A DNA stretch of 45,587 nucleotides, taken from a virus (Duplodnaviria > Heunggongvirae > Uroviricota > Caudoviricetes). The stretch lies in IMG/VR virus record IMGVR_UViG_2597489870_000004; one strand, written 5' to 3'. The notes below the pieces were generated by a model, which saw only the letters and a list, made by a program, of their open reading frames with translations, was not told where the DNA came from and searched no databases. Below, piece by piece: positions 1,933-38,253 of this stretch. The position numbers and the translations under genes were made by a program. Positions within the stretch are counted from its first letter, which is position 1, and every line of letters starts with the position of its first letter.

Positions 1933-4900
1933 TTAAATACTCCCCGCGTTATACCACCTTCCATTAATGCAATACTGAATTGGCCTTGCCTGAGTTGTAT
2001 CAATTAATTCATCACGGTTTCCGTTAACTGAACCCGTAACGACATAACCTGACCTGTCAGACCAGCCGGGACCATTCCATGTCTGAACAGATGACAGACC
2101 GCCCAGGCGAATACCTGTAATAAACCTTGAGTTACATTCTGCCTGCGTATATGCACCAACATCCCCCGCAGAGGGTTTGCGGGTTGTGGTGTAAAACTCT
2201 GACCAGTTAGCTTCAAAGCCATAACCATCACGCGCTGAACGATAAAAGATACCGCCGTTTTTATAATTCACGCGGAACTGTACAGCAGGGCAACTCCCCG
2301 CATTCATATTAAAGTGGAGGATTAATGTCGATGCGCCACTGATATCTGCATCATAAACGCCGCTATTCCAGTTCCAGCCAACAGCTTTATCATTTGCAAC
2401 CCTGCTTCCTGTTTGCCCTAAAGCAAATGCAGGCTGCTGGTTTTTCGTGTTGTAGTCTCGTCGCCAGCCAGGAGCATAAGCATCACCATGATTAATATAG
2501 GTGAATTGAGCGTTAGTAATTCCGCCACCGCTGGATGTACTCGGCGTAGTAACGCGTATGGTCATTGCGCCGCGAGTGCCAATAACTTCCACCACAGCAC
2601 CTGCAAGACAAATATTTCCGCAACCTGTATCTGTAATGACCTTATTGTTTGCATAAGCCCATGAGCCTTTGCACATCCAGTAAGGATGGTTAAATGCCCC
2701 CTGACTCTCCAGCCACGAAATGAATTGTGCGGTTGTCCAGGTCTGACTATCGCCACCAATATTCAGCCATGCGCTATATGCGCGGCAGGCACCAATATTT
2801 TTGGTGAAGGTATCTTTTCCTGGAATATCTGCGCCGTTCTGTTTTTTCTGTAATGCGCCAGAAGCCTGATTTACCGTTTCCTGTAAACCGAGGTATTCGA
2901 TAACAGCGGCAACGGTCGATTTCGCAAGAATATCCCGCCCGACTTTTGTCAGAGTTGCCAGGCTGGCGACATCATTCCCCGTAAAATACGGAAACTTGTC
3001 TGCCGCAGTAGCAAGCCCGGCCAGCGCCGTCAGGGTGGCATCTTTCGGTTGCTTACCCGCAAGCGCTTTAGTCATGGTGGTCGCAAAATTCGGGTCGTTT
3101 CCCAGCGCCGCCGCTAACTCGTTCAACGTATTCAGTGCGTCAGGCGACGAGTCTACAAGTGCGGCAATCGCGGCCATCACATAAGCCGTGCTTGCGATCT
3201 GAGTATTATTAGTCCCTTTTGGCGCAGTTGGCGTTGTTGGCGTTCCGGTCAGTGCAGGACTATTTAAGGGCGCTTTCTTGTTCGTTTCATCCATTACCGC
3301 CTTAACAGCTTTTGGCGTCGCAGCCAGCGTTTCAGATGTGCTGTTAGTGGCGCTACTGAGCTGAACTATCCCTTTTCGTGCCGTCGTTGCGTCCTGAGCG
3401 GTATATTTTGCGTTAGCAAGGTCATATGCTGCCTTTACTGCCTTTGGTGTTGCCGCCAGTGACTCGGAAGTGCTGTTAGTGGCGCTACTGAGCTGAACTA
3501 TCCCTTTTCGTGCCGTCGTTGCGTCCTGAGCGGTATATTTTGCGTTAGCAAGGTCATAGGCTGCTTTTACTGCCTTTGGCGTTGCCGCCAGCGTTTCAGA
3601 CGTGCTGTTGGTCGCACTGCTGAGCTGTACTATCCCCTTTTTCGTCGTGCTCGCATCCTCAAGCGCCACGGCGGATGCAATATCCTCTGCCCGTTTTGCC
3701 GCTGTCTCGGCGCGCGTTGCCGCGGATTCCGCCGTACTTTTGCTCTGAGCTGCCGCCGTCGCACTGCCAGCTGCCTCTGTCGCCTTCGTGGATGCCGTCG
3801 TGGCGCTGCCCTTTGCTGCTGACGCCTGTCTGGTCGCCTCATCTTTTGAAGCAGACGCAGATGATGCCGATGACGCCGCCGAACTGGCGGACGATGCGGC
3901 AGCCGTTTTTGAGGATTCTGCGCTGGTTTCCGACGCTTTCGCGTTCGTCTCGGATGTCTTCGCTGCGGAAGCAGACCTCGCTGCTGCGCTGGCCTGTACA
4001 GCGGCTTCGCCAGCATTCGTTGTGGCTGTTGAAGCGGACGATGCAGCACTTTCTGCCGATTTTCCGGCGGCGGTGGCACTGGCTGAGGCCTGCCCGGCAC
4101 TTGTTGACGCGGCACTGGCAGACGACGCAGCCGCTGTTTTTGAGCCTGCCGCAGCTGAGGCGCTCTGTCCCGCTGCCGTTTCAGAAGACCTGGCGTTCGT
4201 CTCGGACGTTTTTGCCGCCTTCGCAGAATTTGCTGCCGCCGTTGCCGAGGAAGCTGCGCTGCTGGCGCTCGAGGCTGCGTTCGTTTCTGATGATTTTGCC
4301 GCCTCTTTTGAAGCCGACGCATCCCGTGCTGAAGTGGCTGCTTCTGACGCTTTCGTGGTCGCAGTGGATGCAGAAGTGGCTGCTGATTGTTGTGACACTG
4401 CCGCATTCGTTTCTGACGTTTTCGCCGCACCGGCACTGGTAGCCGCCGCGCTTTTTGAGGACTCTGCAGCGGCAGCACTTTTTGATGCCTCAGAGGCTTT
4501 TGCTGATGCCGTTCCTGCGCTGGAAGACGCTGACTGAGCCGACGACGCGGCCTGTCCGGCTGACGTGCTGGCTGCACGTGCTGAGCCTGCAGCATCAGTC
4601 GCATGGGTTGCCGCCTCACGGGCAGATGTGCTGGCATCACTGGCTGACTTCTTCGCGGCTGCCGTGTTCTGTGCCACTGCGGACGCGTTACGCGCCACCT
4701 CTTCCACCATCAGTTCAAAACGTCGCAATGCCTCCGGACGGGCATCATCCTCCGTCATGGCACCGAGAAAATCATTCAGCGTACCGGGTTGAGAATCTTC
4801 ATACACGGTGATGGTCCCGGCATGTGACGGCGGGAATCCCTCCACCAACAGAATAACGCTGTACTGACCGTACTCAACGTCCATGCTGTAACGCCCGGCT

Positions 4901-18590: not shown

Positions 18591-20162
18591 TTACTGAGAG
18601 CTCAGATCAACTTTCCAGGGCAACAGATCGCGTACCCGGTTTGCCGGCCAATCCTGGATATGTTCAATGACGTAACGCAGCCACTTTTCTGGCTCCACAT
18701 TGTTCAGACGGCATGTGCCGATCAGCGAGTACAACACCGCCGCATGTTCACCACCGCTGTCGGAACCCGCGAACATCCAGTTTTTCCGGCCTACGGCCAC
18801 TCCCCGTAAGGCGTTCTCTGCGATGTTGTTGTCGATTTCCACCCAGCCATTACTGCAGTACACGTTCAGTGCATCCCACTGTTTCAGCAGGTATGCGAAC
18901 GCTTTTGCCGTATCTGAGTGACGCGACAGTGTTTTCATCTGTTGCTGTATCCAGTCATACAGTGACTGCATCAGTGGCGCGGCTCTGGCTTTTCTTGCCG
19001 CCAGACGCTGTTCTGCTGAACAGCCCCGGACCTCTGCCTCGATGGCATACAGTTCACCGATACGCTGCAGGGCTTCCGTGGTGATGTAGGTGGGCGCTCT
19101 TGCATGCACATCGTGGATTTTTCTCCGGGCATGAGCCATACACGCGGCTTCCGTTATTCTGCCGGATTCGTATAACGCCCGGTAACCACCGTAAGCATCG
19201 GCCTGAAGCACACCGCTGTAACCGGCCAGGTGATTTTGTGGATGGATACCTTTCCGGTCCGGACTGTACGCGAACCAGACCGCCGGGGGCATCTGTGAAC
19301 CGGCGTTACGGTCATCACGGACGTAGACCCACAGCCGGGCTGTCCGGGTTTTACCGCTGCCCGGCTCCTGGACCGGGACGGGGATATCATCAGCATGGAC
19401 TTTACCGGGCATCAGCACATACTGGCGCAGGACGTCATACAGCGGCTCCAGCAGTTCAGCAACAGCACCTGTCCAGCGCCCCAGTGTGGCACGGCTCAGC
19501 TCCACTCCCTGACGACGGTATATTTCTGACTGGCGGTATAACGGCAGATGGTCTGCATATTTCCCGGTGACAACATGGGCCAGAAGCCCCGCTCCGGCAT
19601 AACTGCGTGCAATGGGTTTTGAAGGTACTGGTGCCTGCACGATATGGTCGCACCGGCAACAGGCCTGTTTCGGACGTTGTGTTTCGATAACCTTAAAGGC
19701 GCTGCTGATAAGCTCCAGTTGCTCTGACACATCACATCCCAGAGAACTGAGTTCACCACCACAGGCAGGACAGCATTCCTCTTCCGGCCGGATAACCCGG
19801 GTTTCACGGGGAAGTGAGGCCGGTAACGGTTTACGGGCTGAAGACTGGCGCAGGGCGGATGGCAGTACCGGGTCATATTGCTCACCCAGCGTTTCCGCCA
19901 TTTCTTCCTGAAGTGCGCTGATTCGCTCCTGTGCTTCCTGTATCTGCCGTTCGGTTTTTGCACGAAGTTTTTCTGAGCTTTTACCGAACTGCATACGTTG
20001 CAGTTTCGCAACCAGCGCCTTCAGCCGGTTGATTTCGGAAGCATAAGCCGCCACCCGCTGTGAGAGCAGGCGGTTGTATTCAGCCATCTGGCGGATGGTG
20101 TCCTGTTGCGTCTGCAACAGTGCCCGCAGGCGGGCGTTCTCATGAGCAAGTGAGGTGTCCAT
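18591..20162 (-). CDS. tnpC: IS66-family transposase TnpC (orf3)
   Basis: 523 aa; N-terminal leucine-zipper-like region, CxxC...CxxC zinc motif, C-terminal DDE-type region as in IS66 transposases. Confidence 0.85.
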
Positions 20163-20181
20163 ATCCTCACTTTACAACGGG

Positions 20182-20529
20182 TTATATGCGGATTCCAGCG
20201 CGTTCCGTTCGTTTCGGGTGCTTCCAGTTGATACCTTCAAGAAGCATGGATAACTGAGCCGGAGTAAGGTGCACCTTGCCGTCACGGGTGACTGGCCAGA
20301 CGAAGCGGCCCCGCTCCAGGCGTTTGGTGAAGAGGCACAGTCCGTCACTGTCAGCCCACAACACTTTTATCTGGTCACCCCGGCGTCCGCGGAAGATGAA
20401 CAGGTGTCCGGAGAACGGGTCATCCTTCAGGACGTTCTGAACTTTTGATGCCAGGCCGTTAAAGCCATTTCGCATATCGGTGATACCTGCAACCAGCCAG
20501 ATACGCGAACCTGCAGGGAGAGATATCAT
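20182..20529 (-). CDS. tnpB: IS66-family Orf2 (TnpB)
   Basis: 115 aa, MISLPAGSRIWLVAGITDMRNGFNGLA... characteristic of IS66 orf2 proteins. Confidence 0.85.
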   Translation of the reverse strand: MISLPAGSRIWLVAGITDMRNGFNGLASKVQNVLKDDPFSGHLFIFRGRRGDQIKVLWADSDGLCLFTKRLERGRFVWPVTRDGKVHLTPAQLSMLLEGINWKHPKRTERAGIRI

Positions 20530-21206
20530 CAGTGGCTGCTCCCTTTTATTTCGCGGATAAGTGTCTGTAATAACGCCGGCGTCAGTTTACCTTTAAGCCT
20601 GAGAGTTCCGGCCGGCAGAACCAGCTCACAACACAGACTGTCGGACGGTGTATTTATCTGCTCTGGTTCCTGTGCGGGGGCCGGGATTTTATTATCCGGC
20701 TCCGGCGTTAACGTCACGGGAAGCAGTGCCGGCATATTTTTTCCGGAAGGCAGCAGGCCACCTTTCCGGTATTGATGGCGCCAGTTGAAGAGCAGGTTAT
20801 CGTTGATTCCGTTTTCCCGGGCGATCTGCGCCACACAGGCTCCGGGCTGCAGTGACTGCTCCACTAAGGCGATTTTAAACTCATAAGGGAAGTTGGGCCG
20901 CCGGGGACGTTTTTTTACCACGGGGGCTTCGGATATAACGGTGCTTTCAGGACGTACGACTGGTACCGTGGAAAATTGTCCGTAAAGGCAGGCATCAAGT
21001 TCCTGCTCCGACATGCCTGCGGGTAAAGGCCACGAAAGGCCAGCTCTCCGAAAGCGCACGAACATACTACAAACTGTTGATTTTGGTACACCCAGGCGAC
21101 GCCCGGCCACAACCCGGGGTAAATGTTCTTCAAAGTGAAGACGTAAAGCTTCAGTGATCCAGGTCCGGTGTTTCATACGATAGTGTCCATTAAAAATGAT
21201 GGACAT
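20529..21206 (-). CDS. tnpA: IS66-family accessory protein (orf1) with HTH region
   Basis: 225-aa ORF, first of three IS ORFs, contains transposase-type HTH segment (NFPYEFKIALVEQSLQPGACVAQIARENGINDNLLFNWRHQYRKG); true start may be downstream. Confidence 0.6.
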   Translation of the reverse strand: MSIIFNGHYRMKHRTWITEALRLHFEEHLPRVVAGRRLGVPKSTVCSMFVRFRRAGLSWPLPAGMSEQELDACLYGQFSTVPVVRPESTVISEAPVVKKRPRRPNFPYEFKIALVEQSLQPGACVAQIARENGINDNLLFNWRHQYRKGGLLPSGKNMPALLPVTLTPEPDNKIPAPAQEPEQINTPSDSLCCELVLPAGTLRLKGKLTPALLQTLIREIKGSSH

Positions 21207-33212: not shown

Positions 33213-34271
33213 TCATGCTTTCCACTTCAGGACACCCGAATTTCTCGCGTGCATTAAAAAACGAATCAGCAACAACAGCTGGCTGCCGTGTTTTTCTTCA
33301 AAATCTTTTACCCCGGCGTGTAGTTCGCTATGGCATTTACGGCACAGCGGAATAACAAACAAATCATCAGCCTTTGTTCCCATCCCTCCCAGTCCATGAC
33401 CAATGATGTGATGCGGATCATCTGCCTGATTACCACACGTCATGCATTTCTGCGTTTTTACCCAGCGCGTGTATACAGGCATCTCTTCCCGTCGTGGTTT
33501 CTGGCGCTGGAGATACTGAGCCGGAGACTCCGGATCAACGGCGATGCTTACTAACGTCTTTTCCTGGAGTGGGGGCTGTTGCTGGTGGACGTGAAGTGGC
33601 AGCGCAATATTTTTTGTGCGCTGCTTCAGTATGCTGGTGGCAGTCTGTTCTCCCGGTACGATGTCACTCTCACGGTATACGGAGCGGATTTTTTCCACCG
33701 GTAATCCCAGTGAACGACACAATACAGACTCCGGAAGCGCATCAGCCACCTGATTGCAGACCGCCCACCAGGATAATTCGGCCAGCGATAACTCCCTCTC
33801 CTGCGTACCGCTGATTGCGTGACGGATGACGTCAATCATCCATGCTGACAAGTTTTGGTGAGCAAGTTGCTCAAGTGATTCTGAGGTCTGGTCACACAAC
33901 TGGTTGTCGCAGTGCCAGCACAACACCATTGCGCCGGTACCATAACGGTGAATGACGGTTTCACTGTGGTGATAATCACCGTGTGGCCACTGGCAGGATT
34001 TAATATGGCGCAACAGCCAGTCAGACAGTGCACCAGCGCCGCCAGCAGCACGAATCACACGCTCATTGCTGAAAAATGGCAGTAATGATTTATCCTCCGC
34101 CAGCGGCTGGCGAACGGCAGGGACGACTCCGGATGGCAGGCCGCACATGCTTTTCGGTTCCGGCTCCACCAGCACTCGAGGATTATGAAATATCTGTATG
34201 GATTCACGGCCCGGCTTAAGGACCACCAGCCCAAGCTCAGGCACCAGAACAGGTCTAAGTAATACCCGCAC
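33213..34271 (-). CDS. DUF968-like prophage protein with C-terminal HNH-type Cys/His zinc motif
   Basis: 352 aa; C-terminus CMTCGNQADDPHHIIGHGLGGMGTKADDLFVIPLCRKCHSELH; position equivalent to ydfU of the Qin prophage. Confidence 0.6.
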   Translation of the reverse strand: MRVLLRPVLVPELGLVVLKPGRESIQIFHNPRVLVEPEPKSMCGLPSGVVPAVRQPLAEDKSLLPFFSNERVIRAAGGAGALSDWLLRHIKSCQWPHGDYHHSETVIHRYGTGAMVLCWHCDNQLCDQTSESLEQLAHQNLSAWMIDVIRHAISGTQERELSLAELSWWAVCNQVADALPESVLCRSLGLPVEKIRSVYRESDIVPGEQTATSILKQRTKNIALPLHVHQQQPPLQEKTLVSIAVDPESPAQYLQRQKPRREEMPVYTRWVKTQKCMTCGNQADDPHHIIGHGLGGMGTKADDLFVIPLCRKCHSELHAGVKDFEEKHGSQLLLLIRFLMHARNSGVLKWKA

Positions 34272-34272
34272 G

Positions 34273-34545
34273 TTACCTCCAGATCCGTTGCTGGAAAGTG
34301 CGGGACGGACGTGGTGGGCGTTCGGAATAAGGCAGCCTGACAGAGATTATCCAGTGCCGATAGTCGAGACTGAGAGCTTTCTTAACCTCGAACCCGCGCC
34401 TGCGGTAAGAATGAATCAGCCATTCGGCCTGTTCTTCAGTACATGGTGGGTGTTGGTACCAGTCGGTTTTAAATGCGTGTGAACGCCGCTCATGCCGGAT
34501 GGCAAGGTCGGTATCAGAATTGTGAAATTTGGTTTTGTGCGCCAT
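34273..34545 (-). CDS. Hypothetical protein (position of rem in Qin-like prophages)
   Basis: 90-aa ORF between hok and the DUF968 gene. Confidence 0.45.
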   Translation of the reverse strand: MAHKTKFHNSDTDLAIRHERRSHAFKTDWYQHPPCTEEQAEWLIHSYRRRGFEVKKALSLDYRHWIISVRLPYSERPPRPSRTFQQRIWR

Positions 34546-34615
34546 CTGTTTTCTCTGCTGGCGCAGCAGGTGTCAGGTGTTCAGGCTGACGTGCGAATTG
34601 TAAACCAGAATGCCA

Positions 34616-34644
34616 GGAAAAAACAAAACCCGCCGAAGCGGGTT
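34616..34644 (-). terminator. Rho-independent terminator at 3' end of hok transcript
   Basis: Hairpin aacccgccgaagcgggtt followed on the minus strand by TTTTGTTTTTT. Confidence 0.65.
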
Positions 34645-34712
34645 AAGTGCGGGTGCGTTGAGGATGCCTGACACATCAGAGGTGGCGAGGGATTTCTCCC
34701 CCGCCAGGTCTC

Positions 34713-34868
34713 TTACTCCTCAGGTTCGTAAGCTGTGAAGACAGCGACCTCCGTCTGGCCGGTTCGGATTCGTACCTCGCAGAGGTCTTTCCTCGTTACC
34801 AGTGCCGTCACTATGACGGTTAAACAGATGACGATCAGGGCGATTAACATCGCCTTTTGCTGCTTCAT
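34713..34868 (-). CDS. hok: Hok/Gef family type I toxin (51 aa)
   Basis: Translation MKQQKAMLIALIVICLTVIVTALVTRKDLCEVRIRTGQTEVAVFTAYEPEE, matching the remembered HokD/RelF sequence; below ORF-track cutoff, found by manual translation. Confidence 0.85.
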   Translation of the reverse strand: MKQQKAMLIALIVICLTVIVTALVTRKDLCEVRIRTGQTEVAVFTAYEPEE

Positions 34869-35126
34869 AGCCTGCTTCTCCTTGACCTTTCGGTCCGTAA
34901 GAGGCTAATCTCTATGTGTCGCATAGATATGGCCTCAGATTAATGTTAAGCGTCTTGCAGGACGCGTAATGTTAACTGGGGCTTTTCTCTATCTGCCTTT
35001 TGGTGTTCATGCCTGAGACAGATAGCCTCAAGCACCCGCAGTCATTCTACTTAACTAAGATTTCCCCGCAAACCGTTTTTGTCCGGCACAGTAAATATCC
35101 AACTAAACCAATGGCGTTCGCTGTAT

Positions 35127-35306
35127 TTACCGCCAGTATTCAATGCACATGACCGCCATGAACACCCCTAAAAAAAGGGCATTTATATATCCAAATATTA
35201 ATATCAAAACATCAACTTTTTCCATATACCTTGCTGTGAAGATGATGGGCATACATGATACGAACAACCAAAACGCAACAAACAAAAACTGCAATGCGTT
35301 TTTCAT
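35127..35306 (-). CDS. Small two-TM membrane protein (59 aa), AT-rich codon usage
   Basis: Start at ATG 35306 preceded by GGAGGA; MKNALQFLFVAFWLFVSCMPIIFTARYMEKVDVLILIFGYINALFLGVFMAVMCIEYWR. Confidence 0.55.
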   Translation of the reverse strand: MKNALQFLFVAFWLFVSCMPIIFTARYMEKVDVLILIFGYINALFLGVFMAVMCIEYWR

Positions 35307-35535
35307 TATTCCTCCTACAATCAATGTGCAATTACATTTAAACACACCTCAATTTGGCCGGACATATAAATATCTAAACCAGAAAAAATCACTTACATAG
35401 CGTTACAAACTCTTTAGTCTAAATATTCATCGTAAAACATTCCCCATACTTATCAGCCCGTTCTGCGCTAGGTAGCTCATTGCCTTATCTGGGAATCTGT
35501 AATCAGGTTTCCGGATGCTGGTGGATTTTCGCGTT

Positions 35536-35793
35536 TTAGTTGTTCATAAAAGTGCACAGCTTTAACCAGTTCTTCTGATGTAACCGGGACTGGCGGGGCA
35601 GTGAATAAGGCCTGAATTTCATAGTTCGGCCTGTCGTTACAATCCTCTTTTTTCGGTACATATTTCCAGTCACCAGACCACTACTTCCCCTGAAAGTCCG
35701 TAACGCCTTTTTTTTCACGTAGCGATATCGCCATGCCACTGTTTTTGCTTGCCCCGCCGTTTCATGCCCTTCCTGATAATTAACCTCGCTCAT
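35536..35793 (-). CDS. Hypothetical basic protein (85 aa), coding status uncertain
   Basis: ATG overlaps the stop of the upstream 58-aa ORF (ATGA); composition is R/K-rich and an alternative overlapping frame looks more protein-like. Confidence 0.3.
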   Translation of the reverse strand: MSEVNYQEGHETAGQAKTVAWRYRYVKKKALRTFRGSSGLVTGNMYRKKRIVTTGRTMKFRPYSLPRQSRLHQKNWLKLCTFMNN

Positions 35794-35966
35794 TCATCGC
35801 CCCACTCATCACAATATGCTTCGACCGGAGTTTTTCCTGCTTCATAATCATCACGCCATGCTTCAGCATCAGCAGCACTGCCACCACGTAACTCTGCATA
35901 GTCCATTAACAGTTCATGCCATTCTTCAAAACTGACGTTGTATTTAGTTGAACCAAAATCAGCCAT
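35790..35966 (-). CDS. Hypothetical small acidic protein (58 aa)
   Basis: MADFGSTKYNVSFEEWHELLMDYAELRGGSAADAEAWRDDYEAGKTPVEAYCDEWGDE; start overlaps stop of the upstream acidic ORF. Confidence 0.5.
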   Translation of the reverse strand: MADFGSTKYNVSFEEWHELLMDYAELRGGSAADAEAWRDDYEAGKTPVEAYCDEWGDE

Positions 35967-36141
35967 TTTGTTCTTCCTCTTCGTCTTTTATTTCGTGATA
36001 TGAGTAATTGCAGTAGTTAAAGAAAATATCTTTTTCTTCGTCATGTATTTCATCAGGCATCGCATCATCATCCACTTCGAATTCATCCTCGAAATCTCCA
36101 CCGGCTATTCCCGTTTCAATAATTATTTTAAACTTTCGCAT
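35959..36141 (-). CDS. Hypothetical highly acidic small protein (60 aa)
   Basis: MRKFKIIIETGIAGGDFEDEFEVDDDAMPDEIHDEEKDIFFNYCNYSYHEIKDEEEEQNG; AT-rich; first of three coupled small ORFs. Confidence 0.5.
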   Translation of the reverse strand: MRKFKIIIETGIAGGDFEDEFEVDDDAMPDEIHDEEKDIFFNYCNYSYHEIKDEEEEQNG

Positions 36142-36234
36142 TTAACTACCGCCCTTTCGGGCGGCCTCCTGATGTTCTGAGGGTGCAGAAATCCCTCCGG
36201 TTAAGGATTAAATTTTTAACAGAGCTAAATTTAA

Positions 36235-36591
36235 TTATTCAGTTCTGGATTTTGTCGCCCTGCGTATCCGCGCTTTCGCGTTACGCTCAATCTGAATTAG
36301 CTTTTCTATATTTTTTCGCCTTTCCCGCTCCTCCTGACGCAAGAGCCTTACATCATCTGCCAGTCTGGTTTCTCTTTTCGCCACAGAGAGCATCCAGTCA
36401 AATGGCTCCACAACTGCACCGCAGATTTTACAGCGGACCTGACGCTCTTTTTCGTCAACCCGGACAGAGGCGTGATGACAATATGGTCTTTCCGATGGCT
36501 CATAAAGAAAATTAACCTGATTACGAGGGTCATCCTCTTTTACCGGAAATAAAACGATATTGCTTAACTCATCCTCTGGTTTTATTTCCAT
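36235..36591 (-). CDS. Hypothetical protein with CxxC/HH zinc-ribbon-like motif
   Basis: 118 codons from ATG 36591 with AGGAGAGGAG Shine-Dalgarno; maximal ORF to 36648. Confidence 0.55.
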   Translation of the reverse strand: MEIKPEDELSNIVLFPVKEDDPRNQVNFLYEPSERPYCHHASVRVDEKERQVRCKICGAVVEPFDWMLSVAKRETRLADDVRLLRQEERERRKNIEKLIQIERNAKARIRRATKSRTE

Positions 36592-36648
36592 GCTCCTCTC
36601 CTTTGATGCGAATGCCAGCGGTAATTGAAGCCTGATAGCTAATTTCAC

Positions 36649-37071
36649 TCACAGTACCGCCTCCTGAAAATTACCCTGATAGAAAGCCAGTACACGCTGC
36701 ATAGCTTCACTCTTCCGGCACTCGCGACAGATTATGTTTAGGCGACTGTCGTAGCGACGTATTTCTCCGTCAGGTAACGACCAGATAAGGTCCGGATCAA
36801 CCACAACCGGTTTCTTCAGCTTTGCCCTCGATAATTTTTTGCGGGCATTTTGCCAGTCTTTACGAGCCTGTTCAGACGGGAATAACCCGTAGCCAGAATT
36901 GTATACATCGCCACTGGCAACCAGCTCTCTGGCCAGAACGCTCATCAGATATCTTGTTGCCCCAGTTTTAGCTTCCAGTTGTCGTAACGTCTCGCGCCCA
37001 CTCTGGCGTACGAGTTCAAGAACCTGTCCTTTAATTTTTTCCCGCTCTTCTTGTGTAAAAACTTTTGCCAC
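36649..37071 (-). CDS. Hypothetical protein (140 aa), GTG start
   Basis: ORF downstream of the replication initiator; GGAGGG before GTG. Confidence 0.5.
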   Translation of the reverse strand: MAKVFTQEEREKIKGQVLELVRQSGRETLRQLEAKTGATRYLMSVLARELVASGDVYNSGYGLFPSEQARKDWQNARKKLSRAKLKKPVVVDPDLIWSLPDGEIRRYDSRLNIICRECRKSEAMQRVLAFYQGNFQEAVL

Positions 37072-37111
37072 AAGCCCTCCTGAAAATTACCTCATGACCA
37101 GAAATTAACAC

Positions 37112-38182
37112 TTACCCCCTGAAGCCCGGCGGAATTTCGTTATCCGGTTCAGAAATATGATTCACACAACGCTGGTTGTTCGTGCCGCTTACCGGGAGCA
37201 GCCAGGGGTTTTCAAAATTCCGGTCCGGTCCAAAAAACGTCGTCGCTCGCTGAACAAATTCCGTTCCCGTTTTCCCGGTAGCCGCAAGGTATCTTGCGTA
37301 ACGCCTCACGCCATCCAGCATGGCCTCTGGTGGCACCCCCTCGCGTAATCTGGCTTTCCAGGCACTGAAAGCGGATTTCTTCGGGTTTGCCCCGGCACGC
37401 AACGGGTATTCCCGCCAGACCTGTTCGAACACATCAGGATAATCCACTCGTCCCACAGGCTGCCCGGTGTTTTCCGGGACTACCCGATCGGCTTCCCGCT
37501 GAATGGCGGAATCGGCTTCAGGCTGCTGAAGTTGGTGTGATTGCTCCTGCCTTGCGGTCATCACCTGCTGCACAGCGCCCGAATCGGCTTTCAGCGCATA
37601 CGCTGAATCGGCTTCCGGTGTCGTGCCTGCGGGCTGGCCAGGAGTGACGGTCTGAACATCCCCTGCCTGGTTCGTGGCGTTTTTTACGCCATGGACCATA
37701 GTGTTTTGATCTTCTTGATCTGTATCTTTATCTGTATCTTTATCTGTCGTGACTCGTCGTGACATGTGCGTGACATTTCGTGACTCGCCGTGACAATCGC
37801 CATTTTGTTCCCGCTTTCTTTCCCTCTCTCGCTGCGCCCTCTTGCGCTCTGCCGGAGATTTTGCGGTTTGCAAAATATTGCCGTTGTCCTCTTTCAGCAC
37901 CTGGCGTTTTTCCCATCCAGTGATTAAATCACCATCAAGTACCCGCCCCTGCATCGTCTGCAAAATTGAATCAATTACCTCTTCTGTCACGTCGAGCGCA
38001 CTTGCCAAATCTTCTGTCGTGACATCAATGTGACCTCGCGTGACATTTCGTGACGCGCTCACCAGGAGGTGGATATACACTGCCATCACTGTTGCAATTG
38101 GCTGCCCTGACACCCTGGCAATTGTTCGCCACTTAGGGTCATTTGGCATGTCATGCCATAATCTGAGCCAGGCGTTAGCCAT
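37112..38182 (-). CDS. Replication initiation protein (O-like, iteron-containing)
   Basis: 356 codons from ATG 38182 (GAGGTG upstream); gene contains two clusters of CGTGAC repeats and an adjacent AT-rich tract, as in lambda O/ori. Confidence 0.6.
   Translation of the reverse strand: MANAWLRLWHDMPNDPKWRTIARVSGQPIATVMAVYIHLLVSASRNVTRGHIDVTTEDLASALDVTEEVIDSILQTMQGRVLDGDLITGWEKRQVLKEDNGNILQTAKSPAERKRAQRERERKREQNGDCHGESRNVTHMSRRVTTDKDTDKDTDQEDQNTMVHGVKNATNQAGDVQTVTPGQPAGTTPEADSAYALKADSGAVQQVMTARQEQSHQLQQPEADSAIQREADRVVPENTGQPVGRVDYPDVFEQVWREYPLRAGANPKKSAFSAWKARLREGVPPEAMLDGVRRYARYLAATGKTGTEFVQRATTFFGPDRNFENPWLLPVSGTNNQRCVNHISEPDNEIPPGFRG
37708..37800. repeat. Putative replication origin: five CGTGAC iterons at helical-turn spacing plus adjacent AT-rich tract
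   Basis: cgtgac at 37748, 37758, 37769, 37779, 37790; AT-rich gatcttcttgatctgtatctttatctgtatctttatctgt at 37708-37746. Confidence 0.55.
37986..38056. repeat. Second cluster of (C/T)GTGAC iterons near the 5' end of the initiator gene
   Basis: cgtgac/tgtgac at 38019, 38030, 38040, 38050 plus inverted gtcacg at 37986; shares the 17-mer gcgtgacatttcgtgac with cluster 1. Confidence 0.5.
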
Positions 38183-38253
38183 ACTCACCTCTTCTGATAC
38201 CGAATCTTTTTACTCACGAGTTGCCGGAAGCGATTCGATATGGCTATTGTCAG

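Follow-up and report, generated by a model that had tools for sequence, protein, structure and literature searches.

The AT-rich stretch at positions 35100–36141 of the 45,587-nucleotide window, the whole stretch of DNA analysed here, lies in the early-right operon of a lambdoid prophage and is probably a recombination patchwork of four independently inherited pieces rather than a single functional module. The pieces would be (i) a gene of the DUF7167 family; (ii) a cassette encoding a 58-amino-acid (aa) protein of PHROG 519; (iii) the wreck of a longer gene with an Ead/Ea22-like start, presumably inactivated first by a stop codon and later by poly-A slippage; and (iv) an unannotated 59-aa gene for a predicted helical-hairpin inner-membrane protein, restricted to Escherichia and Shigella and located immediately upstream of hokD/sok. 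An original prediction, made without database searches, had described one accessory module composed of a membrane peptide and three translationally coupled small proteins, and its four open reading frames (ORFs) are present on the minus strand at the places and with the lengths, charges and overlaps that it gave. Sequence comparison established the anatomy of the stretch, the pseudogene status of one ORF, the coding status of the other three and their separate distributions. The low-GC kilobase is a junction where accessory genes, small and each mobile on its own, have gathered alongside one wreck, as is often seen in lambdoid early regions. The features of the stretch are as follows.

35959–36141, minus strand: very acidic 60-aa protein of the DUF7167 family, WP_001224659.1 (Pfam, PHROG and PGAP)
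35790–35966, minus strand: acidic 58-aa three-helix protein of PHROG 519, WP_000753060.1 (profile match and AlphaFold2 model)
35477–35793, minus strand: decayed gene, a PGAP pseudogene labelled "frameshifted; internal stop" (PGAP and frame comparison)
35536–35793, minus strand: "85-aa basic ORF" (open frame, isoelectric point 11.1)
35127–35306, minus strand: c1418-like gene for a 59-aa protein with two transmembrane segments, unannotated in RefSeq (ORF, Shine-Dalgarno sequence and paralog comparison)

The window is 100% identical to the reverse complement of positions 1289847–1335433 of the enterotoxigenic Escherichia coli (ETEC) H10407 chromosome, for which an annotation by the Prokaryotic Genome Annotation Pipeline (PGAP) exists, and represents a lambdoid, Rac/Qin-type prophage. 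The minus-strand genes of 35100–36141 lie between the replication genes and the antiterminator, with the replication genes on one side and DUF968, RusA and the Q-like gene on the other, a position that corresponds to the nin region of lambda. The reading of the stretch as an accessory region, AT-rich and in the early operon of a prophage, is supported. The predicted AT-richness was confirmed when GC windows were computed: the GC content is 0.405, compared with 0.526 for the whole window and 0.53 and 0.51 for the flanking gene blocks (33213–34868 and 36235–38188, respectively). Only 0.2% of the 1042-bp windows have a GC content as low as this, and the other windows with so low a value are at the left end of the whole stretch.

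Separate distributions of the two acidic genes

The 58-aa protein contains 16 Asp/Glu and 4 Lys/Arg residues (net charge about −12) and is a member of PHROG 519 (phrog_519, E = 4.5e-23). The match covers positions 76–137 of the 143-position profile, so that the protein is equivalent to the C-terminal half of longer PHROG 519 members. No Pfam match was obtained, even at E ≤ 10, and the AlphaFold2 model (predicted local distance difference test, pLDDT, 84.7) is a three-helix bundle whose structural matches are generic only. By tblastn, the family was found in 202 phage records, which include Ackermannviridae (of Salmonella, Klebsiella and Serratia), T7-like Koutsourovirus, P22-like phages, where it is located beside Ea22, and lambdoid/Stx phages. 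It was also found in 554 plasmid records, of which 516 are conjugative and about 400 are IncI2, including mcr-1 carriers.

The DNA similarity between the window and an IncI2 plasmid (86.7%) has the same limits as the 58-aa ORF. The gene upstream of the homolog encodes DUF1187 in IncI2 and a multi-pass membrane protein in large Klebsiella plasmids, and in every such plasmid context the 58-aa gene retains an 8-nt start/stop overlap with its upstream neighbour. Because the DNA match is confined to the ORF, the 58-aa gene is a cassette recombining at its own edges, and DUF7167 is just one of several upstream neighbours. The cassette appears to be exchanged whole among conjugative plasmids and both temperate and virulent phages.

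The 60-aa protein encoded upstream is more acidic, with 21 Asp/Glu and 5 Lys/Arg residues (net charge about −16). Its assignment to DUF7167 (PF23768) is based on a score of 46.3 bits against a cut-off of 24.4 over profile positions 1–60 of 60; the same name is given by PGAP, and the ORF also matches PHROG 1997 (phrog_1997, E = 2.6e-27). The AlphaFold2 model (pLDDT 76.7) has a β-β-α-β fold, and a Foldseek comparison with viral models returned only uncharacterised phage proteins of 50–60 aa. Relatives occur in 35 phage records, including distant ones in Klebsiella Guernseyvirinae and Enterococcus Herelleviridae, a phage distribution that differs from that of the 58-aa family. The 60-aa and 58-aa ORFs overlap by 8 nt (ATGGCTGA), and the 58-aa and 85-aa ORFs overlap by 4 nt (ATGA); both overlaps are kept in phage ArgO145. 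In the literature, no mention was found of DUF7167, of the accession numbers or of the peptide string. An exonuclease neighbourhood was considered for the remote homologs of Klebsiella and Enterococcus phages and rejected for want of a consistent association; the neighbours annotated as "exonuclease" are unrelated by Pfam, one being DUF2800/PD-(D/E)XK and the second DUF3850/ASCH. In a 247-aa protein of Escherichia albertii (P0052), the DUF7167 domain is fused to approximately 190 residues without a confident Pfam match, which may reflect either a genuine fusion or an artefact of read-through.

These distributions bear on the originally predicted view that the stretch is one recently acquired module, in which acidic DNA-mimic or anti-defence proteins act together with a membrane toxin or exclusion peptide. 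This view, which we consider quite unlikely, draws on the low GC content and the early-operon location of the stretch, on the extreme acidity of two of the proteins and on the occurrence of the 58-aa family in both phages and conjugative plasmids. It also draws on the machine-learning predictor PaCRISPR, which scored Kuttervirus members of PHROG 519 as candidate anti-CRISPRs (PMC9409062), the sole appearance of PHROG 519 that we found in the literature. Two points weigh against a patchwork: the pieces occur together in 71 of the 80 closest IMG/VR loci, and no function is established for any of the 3 intact genes. The 80 loci were chosen by identity to the window sequence, and co-occurrence there says little either way.

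The one-module view is countered by the separate occurrence of the pieces elsewhere, by the artefactual nature of one of the four ORFs (described below) and by the lack of similarity of the acidic proteins to Ocr, ArdA or other DNA mimics, in either sequence or structure. Nor is the 58-aa gene located where the view would place it on plasmids. Plasmid anti-defence genes usually cluster in the leading region beside the relaxosome. The IncI2 mcr-1 plasmid pVT553 carries an 88%-identical copy of the 58-aa gene (region NZ_KU870627.1 60746–61130; positions 1090–1474 of locus L106), which follows a gene for a CaiF/GrlA-family regulator and DUF1187 and precedes SPFH/NfeD genes, heading the type IV secretion system (T4SS) operon. 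A leading-region location was therefore rejected for IncI2, as the pVT553 homolog is at 60.7 kb and mobC and the relaxosome are at approximately 14 kb; the position at the head of the T4SS operon is a poor fit with the usual placement of anti-defence genes. Being encoded behind the CaiF/GrlA-type regulator, the homolog may alternatively have a part in regulating transfer. The patchwork remains the reading that we prefer.

One further feature adjoins the DUF7167 gene.

36148–36165, minus strand: stable hairpin, with a GC-rich stem of 7 bp and a GAAA loop, just ahead of the DUF7167 start (folding and sequence)

The GGCGG of this hairpin provides the only Shine-Dalgarno-like bases before the DUF7167 start. 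The hairpin was ruled out as an intrinsic terminator, since no U-run follows it. An intergenic segment with two hairpins (36147–36214) recurs in phage phiSTEC1589-Stx1c (98.5% identity) and in Rac-SA53 (about 95%), both of which lack a downstream DUF7167 gene. The segment may be a conserved linker for mosaic recombination or an RNA processing or stability element.

The decayed gene behind the 85-aa reading frame

The third predicted protein, 85 aa long and basic, is an artefact, namely a frameshifted pseudogene read out of frame, and its basic composition arises because the decayed gene is read in the wrong frame. Two sites inside the pseudogene are relevant.

35708–35715, minus strand: variable poly-A tract, A8
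35681–35683, minus strand: in-frame TAG

A three-frame comparison with ArgO145 gp10 and gp13 and with peg46 of phage 18-1-2 revealed the frame changes. (i) The first approximately 28 residues of the 85-aa ORF (MSEVNYQEGHETAGQAKTVAWRYRYVKK) are authentic, with an Ea22-like start (MSEVNYQ) followed by AWRYRYVKK. (ii) Past the A8 tract, the real frame matches the intact 138-aa protein WP_001400256 (strain ATCC 43886) at 65 of 71 residues (92%), a single TAG taking the place of a GAG codon of the homolog. (iii) In a third frame, the final 28 codons ahead of 35427 match the C-terminal end of gp10 of ArgO145. In phage ArgO145, the counterpart of this gene encodes an intact 211-aa Ead/Ea22-like protein.

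Among 87 close loci, the A-tract consists of 6, 7 or 8 A's, which switches the open frame, and the ORF that begins at the conserved start measures 85, 84, 76, 40, 36 or at least 101 aa; in one locus (L075) the gene seems to be intact. The TAG at 35681–35683 is also present in the 6-A copies, where the ORF is 36 aa long, and the stop therefore seems older than the frameshift. With six ORF lengths in 87 loci, the conserved frame expected of a functional coding sequence is absent from the 85-aa ORF. Non-conservation of the frame among homologous regions is the observation that the original prediction had itself named as speaking against it, and it applies to the third of its coupled proteins; the 60-aa and 58-aa acidic proteins of that predicted chain are products of real genes.

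The 59-aa membrane protein gene and its surroundings

The 59-aa ORF, described in the original prediction as a two-helix membrane protein with a strong Shine-Dalgarno sequence, is, by comparison with a diverged paralog, a real gene. The comparison involves the following features.

35311–35316, minus strand: Shine-Dalgarno sequence AGGAGG, 5 nt upstream of the ATG of the 59-aa ORF
3829–4008 of locus L014 (E. coli NC101, NZ_CP072787.1 2367430–2367609): diverged, unannotated paralog, the sole intact ORF of a 1.2-kb AT-rich stretch

The protein is very hydrophobic (grand average of hydropathy 1.31), with two hydrophobic segments. Among 5426 complete E. coli genomes, 1570 carry the segment encoding it, never below 95% identity, and all 88 close loci retain an intact ORF. 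RefSeq/PGAP annotates nothing at 35127–35306 in any genome inspected; GenBank submitters have named the product a hypothetical protein (for example, c1418 of CFT073).

The paralog (P0236/P0242), found by an exhaustive HMMER search (E = 3.7e-9), is also 59 aa long and aligns without gaps from M1 to R59, with 25 of 59 residues (42%) identical in the codon alignment. Four observations on this pair argue for coding. (i) The proportions of non-synonymous and synonymous differences (pN = 0.33; pS = 0.71, saturated) give a ratio of non-synonymous to synonymous rates (dN/dS) of approximately 0.2, and the nucleotide differences by codon position are 25/16/31, the third position being the most diverged. 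(ii) The DNA similarity is limited to the ORF, with the same start and stop and unalignable flanks. (iii) Only the 59-aa frame is open in both copies, with a BLOSUM62 score of 156 compared with at most 62 in the other five frames. (iv) In random mutants at the same density, the frame stays open in 7.7%, and the amino-acid identity is above random expectation (P = 0.007). Purifying selection and frame conservation, the signs of functional coding, are thus both found, on one paralog pair. The conserved positions (W13, S17-C18, P20-I21-I22, T24, F38-G39, N42-A43-L44, G47-V48-F49, E56 and W58-R59) frame the two hydrophobic segments and the short polar loop between them.

The paralog is located at the ttcA-uspF (Rac attachment) site, between an integrase remnant and a decayed metal-transporter gene, and is present in 1045 complete genomes, where it is also unannotated. 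A terminator-like hairpin is located on the opposite strand, approximately 55–100 nt downstream of the paralog (around L014 4063–4110). No relatives of the 59-aa protein outside Escherichia/Shigella were found by a word-indexed search, the exhaustive HMMER search or a scan of GTDB species representatives, and the gene is absent from the K-12 Qin and Rac prophages. A plus-strand ORF of 85 aa at 35143–35400, annotated in phage PhiR42_1, was rejected on account of a stop codon in one relative and its low-complexity composition.

Alternatively, the 59-aa frame may happen to be open in T-rich DNA without being a gene, which is what its omission from RefSeq would imply. PGAP never calls the ORF (the annotation under matches is either "none" or neighbouring features), hydrophobic codons are to be expected in AT-rich, T-rich DNA, frameshifts occur in a minority of the database copies, and no promoter was found. 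Several points count against our interpretation as a gene: within the close lineage, the variable sites comprise 8 non-synonymous (conservative) changes and 1 synonymous change, a pattern that by itself gives no sign of purifying selection; the case is built on a single old paralog comparison together with lower site variability; and a search for expression data found none, while K-12 small-protein surveys do not cover the gene because K-12 lacks it. A chance frame is nevertheless very unlikely given the ungapped 59-codon paralog with its codon-position pattern and unalignable flanks, the fact that no other frame is open in both copies and the perfect Shine-Dalgarno sequence at optimal spacing. 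It is further opposed by the intactness of the ORF and by its variability, which is lower than that of the flanks (9 of 180 sites compared with 32 of 261; p = 0.012).

A complete hokD locus, outside the coordinates of the original prediction, is located immediately downstream of the 59-aa ORF.

34713–34868, minus strand: hokD toxin gene (Pfam HOK_GEF, E = 1.2e-23; PGAP)
34866–35037, minus strand: hok/sok leader (Rfam sok RF01794, 106.7 bits, E = 2.7e-24)
35044–35071, minus strand: putative hok promoter TTGCGG-N16-TAGAAT (read from the sequence; under the consensus-scan threshold)

The leader follows the 59-aa ORF in 80 of 80 IMG/VR loci and in the E. coli genomes inspected, and the genes upstream of the 59-aa segment vary between E. 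coli strains; the membrane ORF thus travels with the hok/sok leader and not with the acidic genes, contrary to a single module. The constant association, together with the putative hok promoter only approximately 55 nt past the 59-aa stop codon, would fit a functional role for the ORF within the hokD/sok cassette, where it might encode a second toxin or regulate how hok is expressed. We regard this as highly improbable: neither hok nor sok lies close to the diverged paralog (an Rfam scan across L014 2800–5100 was negative), hokD of K-12 is preceded by relBE instead of the leader and the 59-aa ORF, and the 59-aa ORF has no similarity to Pfam HOK_GEF. As the 80 loci are close relatives of the window, the linkage may be no more than shared descent. 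In the patchwork reading, the 59-aa gene is a separate piece.

No promoter or terminator separating the pieces of the stretch was found on the coding strand; around the 59-aa ORF, no sigma-70 consensus or terminator was found on its strand, and its mRNA fold is non-significant (z = −1.45). Because no separate promoter or terminator was found, read-through from the early promoter is presumed, and all genes of the stretch would be transcribed with the early-right operon upon induction.

The gene order of the prophage is integrase, excisionase, exonuclease, ydfD, dicB, LexA-family repressor, Cro, YdaT, replication initiator, DUF977, a zinc-ribbon protein, the AT-rich stretch, hokD, DUF968, RusA, the Q-like DUF1133, and the lysis, head and tail genes. 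A weak match to IsrK, a Salmonella prophage small RNA, lies right after hokD (34623–34704; 27.2 bits compared with a gathering score of 50; E = 0.0065) and overlaps the only intrinsic-terminator-like site on the minus strand (34627–34644); the match may reflect no more than the 3′ terminus of the hok transcript. The 118-aa protein encoded at 36235–36591 (PHROG 1621) has a weak TFIIB-type zinc-ribbon match (21 bits, under the cut-off), and a homolog is labelled methyltransferase in one phage record, a label to which Pfam gives no support. An IS66-family element (18591–21206; tnpA, tnpB and an ISCro1-type transposase) is located between the head decoration and major capsid genes, and as a result of this insertion among the head genes the prophage is probably defective in particle production.

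Possible functions and likeness to known systems

The analysis disposes of a false lead, since the "basic coupled protein" comes from misreading a pseudogene and what looked like a module is a patchwork, and it flags a small membrane-protein gene, omitted by the RefSeq pipeline, that is common among complete E. coli genomes. It also describes, at gene-cassette resolution, an uncharacterised 58-aa protein common to many phage families and to clinically important conjugative plasmids, and this wide sharing of the cassette makes the protein a reasonable candidate for functional screening. The genes are typical accessory genes of mobile elements and represent no new kind of biology or system.

The DNA-mimic or anti-defence roles predicted for the acidic proteins, and the toxin or exclusion role predicted for the membrane protein, received no direct support. 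The 59-, 58- and 60-aa proteins have no family match in PADLOC or NCBIfam, the fold matches are uninformative, and profile searches against the PDB returned nothing meaningful; for the 59-aa protein, Pfam and PHROGs likewise contain no matching family. Anti-CRISPR, DNA-mimic and toxin readings are possible, and the leading-region placement, one correlate expected of them, came out negative. We tentatively suggest that the two acidic proteins might be small soluble domains that bind and block a cellular protein soon after entry or induction. Somewhat more tentatively still, the membrane protein might insert with both ends in the cytoplasm and alter a membrane function, either the entry of other phages or, when overproduced, membrane integrity. 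A broad-host counter-defence or host-takeover role for the 58-aa protein is unlikely, as is, separately, a role for the 59-aa protein as a new prophage toxin or exclusion factor alongside hokD.

Among the closest known systems to the acidic proteins are the small acidic phage-encoded protein inhibitors, such as T7 Gp2, T4 Dmd, AcrIIC3 and AcrIC9. The 59-aa protein resembles Hok/Gef and other type I toxins, as well as small membrane proteins of phages such as T4 Imm and class II holins: it is small, very hydrophobic and prophage-encoded, its gene has a strong ribosome-binding site, and it adjoins a true Hok gene. By contrast, Hok has one hydrophobic segment and the 59-aa protein two; the 59-aa protein lacks the charged C-terminal tail of holins, and the lysis cassette is approximately 5 kb away. 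Assignment of the 59-aa ORF to the Hok/Gef type I toxins was rejected: searches found no HOK_GEF match, no antisense RNA and no significant leader structure for the ORF, and the Rfam sok match downstream belongs to hokD.

The decayed gene resembles the Ead/Ea22 family in its start, MSE[IV][ND]YQ, as in ArgO145 gp13 and lambda Ea22, and in the ATGA overlap. Its body instead matches, in disrupted form, the unnamed WP_001400256 and peg46 of phage 18-1-2. The Ea22 likeness of the 85-aa ORF is limited to the first approximately 17–23 residues (blastp E = 0.038 against lambda Ea22; visual comparison with gp13), and membership in the family was rejected, as the ORF matches no Pfam family, Ead_Ea22 (PF13935) included.

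The arrangement as a whole is similar to the small ORFs of the lambda exo-xis region (orf60a, orf63 and orf61) and ea22, which are likewise overlapping ORFs of approximately 60 aa in an early operon, directly before an Ead/Ea22-type gene. Homology to orf60a, orf63 and orf61 was rejected (blastp E ≥ 0.28); the lambda ORFs belong to DUF1317 and DUF1382, whereas those of this prophage belong to DUF7167 and PHROG 519. In contrast to the lambda exo-xis ORFs, the genes described here are located on the pR side, after the replication genes. In phage ArgO145, the DUF7167/58-aa pair is found in the early-left region equivalent to lambda exo-xis, together with an intact Ea22-like gene.

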